Origin: Flavobacteriaceae bacterium
GTDB taxonomy: Bacteria; Bacteroidota; Bacteroidia; Flavobacteriales; Flavobacteriaceae
Assembly (NCBI GenBank): GCA_947451525.1
Contig: CANFZM010000013.1
Location: forward strand, 5,220 to 69,219
DNA: 64,000 bases
Direction of reading: 5' to 3'
Below the pieces are notes generated by a model, which was given only the letters and a program-made list of their open reading frames with translations, searched no databases and was not told the origin of the DNA. Position numbers and translations under genes: made by a program. Position 1 is the first letter of the stretch. Every line of letters begins with the position of its first letter. This document shows positions 5,027 through 35,163 of this stretch, piece by piece.

Positions 5027-6085
5027 ATGTTACAAATCGAAAAAAAAAACTGCTTTATAGCATTAGGGAAGTTTTTAAGCCAATTTTCATTAGATAATTC
5101 TGCGAAAAACCCTGCAGTTGTAAACAATGATTTGTTTTATGAGGAATTTTTAAACTTGATTGATTTATCGCAATCCCACAATGGATGGTTTACACCAGAT
5201 CAAGTTTATTTTGCTATACAATCTTGGGCAGAAGCACTTACCGAAGACAATTTAAATCTTTGGTTATCCAAATATGATTTCAGCACCATACAACCCAAAA
5301 CCGTTGCATTAATTTTAGCAGGAAACATTCCGCTAGTAGGTTTTCATGATTTTTTATCGGTAGTAATTTCAGGTCATAAAGTATTGGTAAAAACATCTTC
5401 TAACGATCAGAAACTGTTGCCTTTTTTAGCCAAATATCTTATTTCAATTCATCCTGAACTAGAAAACCACATCACCTTCACTGAAGGGAAAATGGAAAAT
5501 TTTGACGCCGTTATTGCCACAGGAAGCAATAATACAGCACGTTATTTTGAATATTATTTTAAAGACAAACCAAGTATTATTCGAAAAAGCAGAAATTCGG
5601 TTGCAGTTTTAACAGGAAATGAAACCCAAGAAAATTTAGCAAATTTAGGCGAAGATATTTTTAGATATTTTGGCTTGGGATGCCGAAATGTTTCTAAATT
5701 ATTTGTTCCAAAAGGCTATAATTTTGATGCTTTTTTTCAAGCAATTTACGAACAAAAGGACGTTATTTATTATGAAAAATATGCTAACAATTATGACTAC
5801 AACAAGGCAGTTTTCTTGATGAGTAATTTCAAATTATTAGATAATGAGTTCTTAACTATTAAGGAAGATTCTAGTTATGCCTCCCCTATTTCGTCGGTAT
5901 TTTATGAATTCTACGATGATATAAACGAAATTAAAAATCGTTTAGAAGTAGATGCAGAGCAAATTCAATGTATTGTTTCTAATGGAATTACAGATAATAG
6001 TATTCCATTTGGGCAAACCCAAAAACCAAACCTTTGGGACTATGCCGACAATGTAGATACTTTGGAATTTTTGTTGGGAATTTAG
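5027..6085 (+). CDS. Acyl-CoA reductase (LuxC-like)
   Basis: AGNIPLVGFHD, ATGSNNTARYF, YFGLGCRNVSK motifs. Confidence 0.85.
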   Translation: MLQIEKKNCFIALGKFLSQFSLDNSAKNPAVVNNDLFYEEFLNLIDLSQSHNGWFTPDQVYFAIQSWAEALTEDNLNLWLSKYDFSTIQPKTVALILAGNIPLVGFHDFLSVVISGHKVLVKTSSNDQKLLPFLAKYLISIHPELENHITFTEGKMENFDAVIATGSNNTARYFEYYFKDKPSIIRKSRNSVAVLTGNETQENLANLGEDIFRYFGLGCRNVSKLFVPKGYNFDAFFQAIYEQKDVIYYEKYANNYDYNKAVFLMSNFKLLDNEFLTIKEDSSYASPISSVFYEFYDDINEIKNRLEVDAEQIQCIVSNGITDNSIPFGQTQKPNLWDYADNVDTLEFLLGI

Positions 6086-32662: not shown

Positions 32663-33274
32663 ATGAATATTATAATTCACCCAAGTTATTTTCCTTCTAT
32701 AAGTCACTATGTTGCTTTAGCAAATGCCGACACGGTGACTTTGGAAATGGAAGATAACTTCCAAAAACAAACTAACCGCAACAGAATGTATATTTATAGT
32801 CCGAATGGCATTCAGTTACTGAATATTCCTATAAAACATTCTGATAATGCCCATCAAAAGATTCAGGATGTAAAATTGGAAACTGCATTTGATTGGCAAA
32901 AACAACATTTCAAATCGCTAGAAGCAGCCTATAGAACTTCACCTTTTTTTGAATATTTTGAGGATGATTTACGTCCAATTTTTACCAAAAAACATACTTT
33001 TTTAATGGATTTGAATTTGCAAACAATGGAACTTGTTTCTAAATGTTTGGGGATGAATTTTACTCCCGAAAAAACTACAGAATATTTTCACGAAATAAAG
33101 GACAAAACTGATTATCGAAATTTAATAAACGGAAAAAAAGACACTACACAACTAGAGTCTTACACTCAGGTATTTGATGATAAACATGGATTTATAAACA
33201 ATCTTAGTATTTTGGACTTATTGTTTAATGAAGGACGTTATGCTAAGGATTATTTGAAGAATCAAAAGTTGTGA
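32663..33274 (+). CDS. WbqC family protein
   Basis: PSYFPSI, FQKQTNRNR, NLSILDLLFNEG. Confidence 0.85.
   Translation: MNIIIHPSYFPSISHYVALANADTVTLEMEDNFQKQTNRNRMYIYSPNGIQLLNIPIKHSDNAHQKIQDVKLETAFDWQKQHFKSLEAAYRTSPFFEYFEDDLRPIFTKKHTFLMDLNLQTMELVSKCLGMNFTPEKTTEYFHEIKDKTDYRNLINGKKDTTQLESYTQVFDDKHGFINNLSILDLLFNEGRYAKDYLKNQKL
33242..33266 (+). repeat. Left direct repeat of the Fic islet (within the wbqC 3' end)
   Basis: GCTAAGGATTATTTGAAGAATCAAA versus GCAAAGGATTATTTGAAGAATCAAA at 34146-34170 (24/25). Confidence 0.85.
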
Positions 33275-33349
33275 TTCTAGAATTTATTTTCTAAATCCCT
33301 TATTTTTAATACCTTTATAAAGAAAAATGAATTTATACAATAATTTTAG

Positions 33350-33357
33350 TACCTTTG
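33350..33357 (+). promoter_or_regulatory. Bacteroidota -7 promoter box for the putative Fic antitoxin
   Basis: TACCTTTG (TAnnTTTG) 7 nt before the ATG. Confidence 0.6.
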
Positions 33358-33364
33358 TTGTGTT

Positions 33365-33559
33365 ATGAAATTCTACGAAAAATATCCGCAGTTACAAGAA
33401 AAAGACTTTTTATCTAAAGTACTTATAAATACTGTATTTTCTACAATGTCGCTTGAAGATCAACAAGTTTCAAAAGTTACGGTTACGAAAATTGTCGCAT
33501 CTATTTTAAAAGAAAAAGAATTAAAAGGAAGTCAATTCTTCACCAATCAGTTGGGTTAA
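33365..33559 (+). CDS. Small putative Fic antitoxin (alpha-inh-like motif)
   Basis: 64 aa with TMSLED resembling (S/T)xxxE(G/N); own TAnnTTTG box at 33350-33357; overlaps the fic 3' end by 39 nt. Confidence 0.55.
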   Translation: MKFYEKYPQLQEKDFLSKVLINTVFSTMSLEDQQVSKVTVTKIVASILKEKELKGSQFFTNQLG

Positions 33560-34105
33560 TAGTTGGTAGTTGCCACTATCGGCTTGTTTCATAGCATCAA
33601 TATAAAATTTTCTGCTTTCTCCTTCACGGAAATATAACTCTAAAGGTTGGTATCCAAATTTCATAGCAACAAGATTCATTAATAATCTTCCAGTTCTTCC
33701 ATTTCCATTATTGAACGGATGAATTCTAATAAATTCATAATGTGCATAAACCAAACACTCAATGTGTTCTTCCCGTTTTTTAGCAATTGAAATTTTAAAG
33801 TTTAAATTATCAATAAACTGATACATTGCTTGTAAAATCAATACAGGTTTGGGTGGAATTAGTTGCCCAACCGTTACTTCGATGATCCTCCATTTTCCTG
33901 CCCAATCATAAAGTTGTCCGAAAGCAATTTTGTGAATTTCAAGTAATAGATTGGTAGAAATTGAAATCTCTGAATCTAATTCAAATAGAAAAAACTCTGC
34001 ATTTGCAATCCCTTTTGCTTCTAACTCGTTGATTTCATTTTTATCCGTTAAACCAAGAAGATTATCGTCTGGAAAAGGAGTCCAGTTTGTATTAGTATCC
34101 TCCAT
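33521..34105 (-). CDS. Fic family protein
   Basis: HPFNNGNGRTGR Fic motif; IHKIAFGQLYDWAGKWR. Confidence 0.92.
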   Translation of the reverse strand: MEDTNTNWTPFPDDNLLGLTDKNEINELEAKGIANAEFFLFELDSEISISTNLLLEIHKIAFGQLYDWAGKWRIIEVTVGQLIPPKPVLILQAMYQFIDNLNFKISIAKKREEHIECLVYAHYEFIRIHPFNNGNGRTGRLLMNLVAMKFGYQPLELYFREGESRKFYIDAMKQADSGNYQLLTQLIGEELTSF

Positions 34106-34145
34106 ATTTAAAAAATATTTTTTACTATAATAAAGATTAAGTTTT

Positions 34146-34170
34146 GCAAAGGATTATTTGAAGAATCAAA
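34146..34170 (+). repeat. Right direct repeat of the Fic islet
   Basis: Reads AKDYLKNQTI* in the wbqC frame (TAA at 34176-34178). Confidence 0.85.
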
Positions 34171-34184
34171 CTATTTAAAATATA

Positions 34185-35102
34185 CTATTTTAGTTGGAAC
34201 TCAATTCCTTTTTCATCAACATAGAAAGTTTTATCTCCTCTTTTTACCTGTAATAATCCTTCTTGATATCCTGAGTAATCAATTTGGTCATAACCAATTT
34301 TATTGATAAATTGTTGTTTGGCATAATCGTATAAATATCGTAATTTATCTGTCTTACCAGTAAATAAACCTATGTGTTGTATACCAGAACCTCCACCATC
34401 AATATAATTATCACTGCAAACTAGAGTACTGTTTTTATCATTTACCACACATATTAGTTGGTCTTTTCTAACTGTAAAACAATAGGTATAATTTTCATCA
34501 AAATAACGAACCCCTTCAATAAAATTGTATTCTAAATTTAGGAAAACCTTACCTGTTGTGGTAATAACTCCATATTTTTTATTGAGATTAACCGAATAAA
34601 GATCGTAAGACTTATCTAAATTAGAAAAAATCTTTCTTATGCCATCGTATTGTGGCAATACTAAAATGGCACCTGTACGTTGGTTTCGTATGCCTTTCTT
34701 TCCTGTAATTGAATCATTTATAATACCAAACTCTTCTTTCTTAATCCTAGCCTGTTCTTGTTCCTCGTCAAACACCGAGGTTTCTTCTTGTGGAACATCC
34801 ATTCTGTCATAATAATTAAAGTCTTTAGGTACGTTTATTTTTAGTCCTTTTTTATTAATAAAAAATTTCTCCTCTCCCAGTTTTACGTAGGCTAAGGTAT
34901 CGGTACTATTGGTTTTTGGGATTTGGTAGGCTGTAAATGGATAAACAATTGCATCATAAGTAGGCTTAATTACAAATTGCATTTTTCGGTTGGTAAAGCC
35001 CCATTTATTATTTTTAATAACCGGAATTAAATTTGGCAGATTTTGTGCAGATAATAAGTAACCCATTAGTAGGCACAAAAATAAAAAATAGTATTTTTTC
35101 AT
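34185..35102 (-). CDS. Secreted WG-repeat protein
   Basis: Signal peptide; NKWGF, KKGI, KKYGV repeats; start trimmed to MKKYY. Confidence 0.7.
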   Translation of the reverse strand: MKKYYFLFLCLLMGYLLSAQNLPNLIPVIKNNKWGFTNRKMQFVIKPTYDAIVYPFTAYQIPKTNSTDTLAYVKLGEEKFFINKKGLKINVPKDFNYYDRMDVPQEETSVFDEEQEQARIKKEEFGIINDSITGKKGIRNQRTGAILVLPQYDGIRKIFSNLDKSYDLYSVNLNKKYGVITTTGKVFLNLEYNFIEGVRYFDENYTYCFTVRKDQLICVVNDKNSTLVCSDNYIDGGGSGIQHIGLFTGKTDKLRYLYDYAKQQFINKIGYDQIDYSGYQEGLLQVKRGDKTFYVDEKGIEFQLK

Positions 35103-35163
35103 TAGGAGGAATTTTGTCAAAATAATTGTTTTTGGATTGGACAATTTTTAGAATAAACAACTT

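Follow-up and report, generated by a model that had tools for sequence, protein, structure and literature searches.

A convergent small gene as candidate inhibitor of a mobile Fic enzyme in Bacteroidota

Can a Fic enzyme be held in check by a small protein whose gene faces it from the opposite strand and runs into its 3′ end? The question is raised by a locus in a 64,000-nt stretch of DNA (hereafter the window; positions 5,220 to 69,219 of contig CANFZM010000013.1, assembly GCA_947451525.1, Flavobacteriaceae bacterium), where a fic gene and a short open reading frame (ORF) meet tail to tail (Table 1). A sequence-only reading of the window had described the Fic protein as lacking an obvious built-in inhibitory motif, had noted that the ORF possesses its own TAnnTTTG box, contains TMSLED and shares 39 nt with fic, and had proposed a Fic toxin–antitoxin (FicTA) pair in a non-operonic layout. 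The overlap and the orientation of the two genes were confirmed by the window coordinates, and both the box and TMSLED were found where they had been described. Taken together, the results presented here favour, at a probability of roughly three in four, the view that the two genes form a self-contained mobile unit of the class I Fic toxin/FicA antitoxin kind.

Coding evidence, promoters and overlap of the small gene

Loci around relatives of the window Fic were taken from species genomes (80 loci, Fic identity 58–86%). Three of these end inside fic, leaving 77 informative loci that continue beyond its 3′ end and span Flavobacterium, Chitinophagaceae, Sphingobacteriales, Cytophagales, Mucilaginibacter, Larkinella, a metagenome-assembled genome (MAG) of Ignavibacteriales and others, and every one of the 77 carried a convergent small ORF on the opposite strand. 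Over the 156-nt part that does not overlap fic, the frame of the small ORF held no stop codon in any locus, whereas the other five frames averaged 2–4; pairwise differences amounted to 0.30, 0.14 and 0.51 at the three codon positions, and the median ratio of nonsynonymous to synonymous substitution rates (dN/dS) was 0.12–0.16. When a profile of the small protein was searched against 1.84 billion representative proteins, 104 clusters at 50% identity were found, all of them small stand-alone proteins (30–159 amino acids, aa) and none inside a long Fic protein. A large protein collection yielded 314 homologues of the small protein, which are 61–64 aa long and, for the 120 listed, 73–95% identical; homologues of the Fic protein numbered 641, and several Fic/small-protein pairs lay on common contigs. 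Three distant members (approximately 40% identical), in which glycine follows the motif glutamate, were again convergent with fic and overlapping.

The small ORF is short, has no Pfam match and is named 'hypothetical protein' wherever a source names it, all of which would suit a chance open frame antisense to the 3′ flank of fic, or an annotation artefact. Such an origin is, however, at odds with the stop-free frame, the low dN/dS, the 104 clusters and the conserved promoter box described below; it was rejected, and its probability is practically nil. By these substitution and conservation patterns the small ORF is a real protein-coding gene.

Independent promoters had been postulated for the two genes, and boxes in keeping with this were found in front of both. 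TAnnTTTG ends 3–9 nt upstream of the small-gene ATG in 60 of the 77 loci and exactly 4 nt upstream of the fic ATG in 37 of 72, with a background of 3.5% per 60-nt window. Judged by where the −7 element of Bacteroidetes promoters is known to lie, a box that abuts the start codon implies a leaderless or near-leaderless mRNA, and both transcripts are probably of this type. In the fic box of the window, TATTTTTT, the canonical final G is replaced by T, a change that hits the most conserved base of the element, while relatives with 92–94% identical Fic have TATTTTTG; the window copy may thus have a weaker toxin promoter and a lower toxin expression. Downstream of the small-gene stop, no conserved terminator or RNA structure was found (no consensus with RNAalifold, mean z-score −0.19), and the window has a single weak hairpin there. 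Since there is neither an intergenic spacer nor a conserved terminator, the transcripts of the two genes would necessarily share sequence at their 3′ ends.

The overlap itself is codon-aligned. In the window, the fic stop lies antisense to codon 53 of the small gene, and the small-gene stop lies antisense to fic Leu183. The same register recurs across the family: the fic stop pairs with Leu53 (TAA/TAG) or Ser53 (TGA) of the small gene in 74 of the 77 loci, codon 53 is Ser in all 18 loci whose fic stop is TGA, and the small-gene stop invariably lies antisense to a fic leucine codon, TTA or CTA. The small ORF therefore extends into fic until it meets the first such leucine codon, which results in discrete overlaps and protein lengths (54–65 aa). 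With the window copy counted, the overlap measured 39 nt in 38 loci, 30 nt in 28 and 42 nt in 5, so that 71 of the 77 loci fall on one of these three values (full range 6–42 nt), and the small gene starts exactly 156 nt past the end of fic in nearly all loci. The AlphaFold2 (AF2) model of the small protein is a two-helix hairpin (helices 13–30 and 37–53; predicted local distance difference test score, pLDDT, 86). Residues 54–64, which are encoded within fic on the opposite strand, are predicted to be disordered and have low model confidence, and their apparent conservation mirrors that of the conserved Fic C-terminal helix. For these reasons the functional protein is read, from model and alignment, as residues 1 to about 53; the overlap would then be a consequence of genes packed without a spacer, not a selected peptide.

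The inhibitor motif, the Fic enzyme and their relatives

The most conserved block of the small protein is [ST]-[ST]-M-x-L-E-[D/N]-Q, in which M28, L30, E31 and Q33 are invariant and T27 is nearly so. In sequence terms, this core is the (S/T)xxxE(G/N) signature of Fic inhibitors, and the invariant Glu occupies about the same position in the roughly 60-aa protein as E28 of AntF and E26 of AntY. The expectation that homologues of the ORF would be consistently convergent with fic and carry the motif was borne out in 77 of 77 loci. The residue after Glu31 is D in 40 of these close relatives, N in 36 and E in one, and G in the distant members (SMQLEGQ, TMELEGQ and TMMLEGQ). An aspartate where glycine or asparagine is usual had been flagged as a possible sign of unusual chemistry; the aspartate is there, but the position alternates between D, N and G across the family, and the window copy is no oddity in this respect.

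The Fic protein has the catalytic residues of the Fic motif, with H129, N135, R137 and R140 invariant in the family. At the position usually taken by Asp or Glu, a ligand of Mg2+, Asn133 was found in 74 of 74 family members. The sequence-only reading was correct in pointing out this asparagine, but it cannot serve as a peculiarity of this copy, being a family trait that is also common to the protein B of the mobile mystery family discussed below. That the enzyme lacks a built-in inhibitory motif held for the window Fic and for its family alike: among 72 sequences only three sporadic matches to [ST]xxxE[GN] were found, none at a conserved column. The AlphaFold model (pLDDT 89.5) shows a complete Fic fold. 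In Foldseek searches it matched FICD (3e-10, 30% identity), VbhT in its structure with VbhA (2e-8, with almost all of either chain aligned), EcFicT in that with EcFicA and Fic-1 in that with AntF, and its template modelling (TM) scores against VbhT, EcFicT and Fic-1 were 0.69–0.77 over nearly full lengths. The best match among PDB sequences was the core of FICD (E 9e-20).

Like the window Fic, the toxins of the class I pairs VbhT/VbhA, EcFicT/EcFicA and Fic-1/AntF are Fic proteins of about 185–200 aa without an internal inhibitory helix, and their partners resemble the small protein in being about 60 aa long and in carrying (S/T)xxxE(G/N) with the Glu at residue 24–31. In class I FicTA systems, however, the antitoxin gene lies upstream in one operon, whereas the genes studied here are convergent and overlapping in all loci; in addition, Asn replaces the Mg-binding Asp or Glu, and the small protein of the window has no detectable sequence similarity to theirs. 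FICD/HYPE, a class II enzyme with activities for the addition and removal of adenosine monophosphate (AMPylase/deAMPylase), is the best PDB match of the catalytic core by sequence and fold, but there the inhibitory helix (E234) is part of the same chain, which also has tetratricopeptide repeat (TPR) and membrane parts, while in the window the motif sits on a separate protein.

The closest known parallel in gene order is FicY/AntY of Yersinia pseudotuberculosis YPIII, which is convergent and in which AntY (STAIET) inhibits FicY in vitro (PMC7479194). Like the window pair, it combines a class I Fic with a small inhibitor gene that lies downstream, is convergent and has its own promoter. AntY has its S-x-x-x-E at about residues 22–26, followed by a non-canonical last motif residue (T, compared with D in the window). 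FicY nevertheless comes from another Fic family, as the window Fic scores only 36 bits with NF007672, the model for Fic of the E. coli type, and the FicY/AntY paper, with which the window pair was compared by description, reports neither a 3′ overlap nor a conservation of the layout across a family. For FicY, AMPylation of ParE has been shown (PMC7479194).

A second relationship emerged from the NCBIfam models, where the best matches of the window Fic and of the small protein were TIGR02613 (mobile mystery protein B; 3e-21, 76.1 bits, below the cut-off of 124.4) and TIGR02612 (mobile mystery protein A; a weak 13 bits, below the cut-off of 122.6), respectively. True protein A, which was present in 33 of 301 Bacteroidota genomes, has about 152 aa and consists of an N-terminal helix-turn-helix (HTH) region of the XRE type and an inhibitor-like C-terminal segment, of which SHTMSLEDQENS, DSMALEGQAVS and HSMKLELQGVS are examples. 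Protein A carries a [ST]MxLExQ signature, including the exact TMSLEDQ, and in an hhalign comparison residues 24–51 of the small protein aligned with residues 115–142 of protein A (89.5% probability, E 2e-6). Protein B has the motif HCFPNGNGRHSR or HLFPNGNGRHAR, with the same Asn as the window Fic (HxFxNGNGR). By these alignments, the small protein is the counterpart of the inhibitory C-terminal segment of protein A minus the HTH domain, and the Asn at the Asp/Glu position is a trait common to the mobile mystery family. Like the window pair, mobile mystery A/B are small mobile two-gene cassettes. They differ in that protein A is encoded upstream of B, co-directionally and with an overlap of a few bases, whereas the small protein has 64 aa and no HTH domain, and its gene is inverted downstream of fic and convergent. 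In the Fic tree, protein B forms a long, well-separated branch away from the window Fic family; given the very long branches of protein B and of the class II cores, the ancestry of the convergent family is not resolved by the tree. Two further loci (L120 and L126) have mobile mystery protein A genes without a recognisable downstream Fic, and thus appear as orphan antitoxin-like genes.

Along its whole length, the window Fic also matches the PADLOC model PDLC04839 of PDC-S04 (4.2e-43, 145 bits; residues 14–191 against model positions 23–202 of 205). PDC-S04 is a candidate defence system with a single-gene definition, and the small partner is absent from PADLOC. A role in phage defence is known for SoFic, an abortive-infection toxin of the Fic type whose small antitoxin gene, AS1, lies downstream (PMC12249575); SoFic differs from the window pair in being a class II enzyme with a length of about 360 aa, and no inhibitor motif has been reported for AS1.

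The cassette and its surroundings

In the window, the pair occupies a 904-bp segment (a 0.9-kb cassette) between 30-nt direct repeats that are identical at 28 of 30 positions and both begin GTT(A/T)TGC. The left repeat completes wbqC, which ends in ..YAKDYLKNQKL before its stop codon. Since the right copy still reads as a wbqC end, it looks like the displaced former 3′ end of this gene, and on the sequence wbqC received a substitute 3′ end that was either carried by the insert or formed through it. In most of the examined relatives without the insert, wbqC is followed by a convergent Exo_endo_phos gene, and in metagenomic relatives with 92–94% identical Fic (L109–L113) the cassette lies at the same site, with fic directly beside the Exo_endo_phos gene. 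Between these two genes a WG-repeat gene (34185–35144) is found only in the genome of the window; as fic abuts the Exo_endo_phos gene in the closest relatives, the WG-repeat gene represents a second, later insertion at the same spot.

Table 1. Coordinates of the two genes, their motifs and promoter boxes, and the cassette boundaries. Positions are those of the window unless a locus is named.
Feature	Position	Strand	Remarks
fic gene, 194 aa	33521..34105	minus	Pfam Fic PF02661 at 9e-20
Small gene, 64 aa, FicA-like inhibitor/antitoxin candidate	33365..33559	plus	homologues, dN/dS, AF2 model, hhalign
Tail-to-tail codon-aligned overlap, 39 nt	33521..33559	both	read from ORF coordinates
Fic active-site motif HPFNNGNGRTGR	33686..33721	minus	H129-P-F-N-N133-G-N-G-R137-T-G-R140
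Candidate inhibitor motif TMSLED	33443..33460	plus	T27-M-S-L-E31-D32, instance of (S/T)xxxE(G/N)
Bacteroidota −7 promoter box of small gene, TACCTTTG	33350..33357	plus	ends 7 nt upstream of ATG
−7-like box of fic, TATTTTTT	34110..34117	minus	4 nt upstream of fic ATG
30-nt direct repeat, left copy	33237..33266	plus	last codons of wbqC as now read
30-nt direct repeat, right copy	34141..34170	plus	reads ..FAKDYLKNQTI, then stop
Inserted two-gene cassette body	33267..34140	both	one repeat copy plus body gives the 904-bp spacing
attC-like repeats in locus L014	1340-1520, 2770-2940, 3750-3920, 5590-5770		five sites in locus L017

Copies elsewhere lie in a different setting. In Flavobacterium lotistagni (L014) and a Flavobacterium MAG (L017), ORF-sized units alternate with 4–5 imperfect palindromic repeats, each about 130 nt long, which have AAC...GTT ends and share a conserved centre; several MAGs also carry the cassette in such arrays. 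The cassette ends GTTGGCGGTAATGC and GCACAACCGCCAAC are complementary in the array-borne copies, and hairpin z-scores of three of the attC-like sites were −4.5, −3.0 and −0.8, so that two of the three fold far more stably than shuffled sequence. From their sequence, the arrays resemble integron attC cassettes in Bacteroidota; the window copy has the 30-nt direct repeat instead of attC-type ends. No integron integrase (TIGR02249) scored above the cut-off in seven genomes, the best matches reaching about 120 + 95 bits; these candidates miss model positions 180–238 and sit on other contigs, with no attC-like repeat beside them. A distant copy with glycine after the Glu has a tyrosine recombinase gene directly upstream of fic on the same strand (L106:1026-2006). 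One Ilyomonas MAG chromosome holds four copies of the cassette (L056, L059, L060 and L064); two of these copies (L059 and L060) are 100% identical over 1020 bp, beginning exactly at the GTTGGCAGAAATG end, and are surrounded by repeats of about 380 nt, which are found again between adjacent units.

The distribution of the cassette is sporadic. Forty-one genomes were searched, the window's own and 40 of relatives, and the small gene was found only in the former; the 40 relatives had no orthologue of either gene, only Fic paralogues of about 30% identity. No copy of the small protein was found in plasmid or phage collections. Some cassette-bearing MAGs are labelled as Vulcanococcus (a cyanobacterium), Bifidobacteriaceae or Gemmatimonadales (L038, L039, L054 and L082), which probably reflects mis-binning or mislabelling and not true hosts. 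Finally, 4 of the 77 fic genes have a single nonsense codon next to an intact small gene, a weak hint at toxicity; the in-frame stops lie at about codons 63 (L072), 157 (L081, an isolate of Larkinella soli), 51 (L085) and 63 (L091).

Proposed mechanism, competing explanations and significance

In the proposed module, the 194-aa Fic would be the enzyme, with His129, Asn135, Arg137 and Arg140 as catalytic residues and no inhibitory helix of its own, and the 64-aa protein would supply the inhibitory element in trans. The invariant Glu31 is predicted to enter the nucleotide pocket, where it would pair with Arg140, the second Arg of the motif, as E28 of AntF pairs with R146 of Fic-1, a contact needed there both for inhibition and for deAMPylation (PMC13327609). 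Adenosine triphosphate (ATP) would then bind unproductively, which would prevent AMPylation of the target; alternatively, the complex might work in the reverse direction and remove AMP, in analogy to Fic-1/AntF and FICD. Free Fic would modify and harm a cellular target, and, by analogy with known systems, a probable role of the module is in addiction, stabilisation or abortive infection.

Several observations weigh against this proposal or limit its support. The Glu31–Arg140 contact is predicted by analogy. Residue 32 of the small protein tracks position 86 of the Fic protein (window about 33848–33850), which adjoins a conserved PP segment, D32 occurring with K/Q and N32 with E/D (mutual information 0.65); this co-variation of charge could mark a contact or clade structure, and it is confounded by phylogeny. 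The profile of the small protein gave only chance matches to PDB sequences (E above 0.5), and Foldseek of its model against the PDB gave no fold match, VbhA included (nothing below E 4.8); a two-helix hairpin is too simple to be placed by a fold search. A derivation from the split-off N-terminus of a class II Fic was considered and received no support from sequence, as hhalign against class II paralogues with SNxIEG gave no alignment. Asn133 replaces the Mg-binding acidic residue, so that catalysis may be weak, metal-independent or different. In Fic-1, the E139A substitution abolished AMPylation and toxicity while deAMPylation was kept (PMC13327609); on the other hand, Stanger et al. found this acidic position to be poorly conserved even among distant EcFicT homologues including VbhT (PMC5033356). 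The rate of nonsense codons per base in fic is not clearly above what is expected from the shorter small gene, and PDC-S04 was negative in one native-host defence test (10.1101/2024.12.20.629700). As to the layout, the proposal of a FicTA pair with convergent genes held in 77 of 77 loci, but such a layout is not new, FicY/AntY being a precedent (PMC7479194).

Some of these points would sit well with a reversible regulatory switch in place of a toxin–antitoxin pair, the complex being the working form, as a deAMPylase or a gated modifier, and free Fic being rare or not growth-inhibiting. The inhibitory Glu also drives deAMPylation in Fic-1/AntF, FICD and EfFic (PMC13327609), sequence and fold searches both rank FICD first, Asn133 may disfavour AMPylation as E139A does in Fic-1, and in one Flavobacterium clade (L022–L032) the cassette has been kept vertically at a single chromosomal site. 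A switch is nonetheless unlikely: the sporadic, cassette-like distribution, with one carrier among 41 genomes, the presence of some copies in attC-like arrays and of several in one genome, and the nonsense codons in some fic genes speak more for a selfish or accessory element than for a regulator with a housekeeping function. It is also conceivable that the small protein serves its Fic partner in a different capacity, for instance as an adaptor, a target mimic or a stabiliser, and that the likeness of its motif is coincidental. The missing sequence and fold matches to VbhA, other PDB antitoxins and class II N-termini could be explained in this way, as could the location of the motif at the C-terminal end of helix 13–30 and in the following loop of the monomer model. 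Yet the motif is the sole invariant block of the protein, its Glu is followed by all three of G, N and D, it recurs in mobile mystery protein A beside another Fic without an inhibitory helix, and the Fic family itself lacks an inhibitory motif, which together make a coincidence very improbable.

The arrangement of the genes invites yet another explanation, in which control would be exerted mainly at the RNA level, the small-gene transcript serving as a cis-antisense antitoxin that targets the fic mRNA at its 3′ end, type I like txpA/RatA, with the peptide secondary. The 3′ overlap is forced in every locus, without a spacer or conserved terminator, the two genes have independent promoter boxes, and the autoregulatory HTH domain of protein A is missing from the small protein. 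However, purifying selection on the peptide is strong, and the motif, where conservation is highest, lies outside the overlap; the overlap varies in length from 6 to 42 nt, its sequence is explained by the coding constraints of fic, and RNAalifold found no conserved structure. Predominant RNA-level control is therefore held to be highly improbable, and its pure form, a type I antitoxin acting as a non-coding antisense RNA, was rejected on the coding evidence. A broader proposal retains the protein inhibitor of the preferred toxin–antitoxin module and adds to it: the loss of the HTH domain might be compensated by the convergent, spacer-less layout, with the antitoxin mRNA serving as cis-antisense RNA and polymerase collision tuning the ratio of the two products. 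This proposal is speculative and on balance doubtful. If true, it would mean that a protein-plus-antisense control circuit, a type I/II hybrid, is conserved across Bacteroidota, and that the invariant Asn points to a changed use of metal or nucleotide, common to the uncharacterised mobile mystery family.

That a Fic enzyme can be checked by a separately encoded, Glu-bearing helix is known from class I systems, and the convergent layout is known from FicY/AntY. What appears to be undescribed is a large family in which the layout is convergent, spacer-less and codon-aligned in every locus examined, the kinship of the small protein with, or its derivation from, the inhibitory segment of protein A, and the missing partner gene of PDC-S04. 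The results thus propose a function for a widespread family of small proteins (104 clusters at 50% identity) without a Pfam domain, and indicate that the Fic family matching PDC-S04 has an overlooked partner gene in all loci examined. Since a Fic gene that is taken alone may prove toxic or impossible to clone, the partner could matter for the testing of PDC-S04. Through the inhibitor segment and the Asn variant, mobile mystery A/B are tied to the antitoxin-inhibited Fic enzymes, and the pair, compact and natural as it is, lends itself to the question of whether a toxin–antitoxin module can exchange repressor-based autoregulation for convergent transcription.

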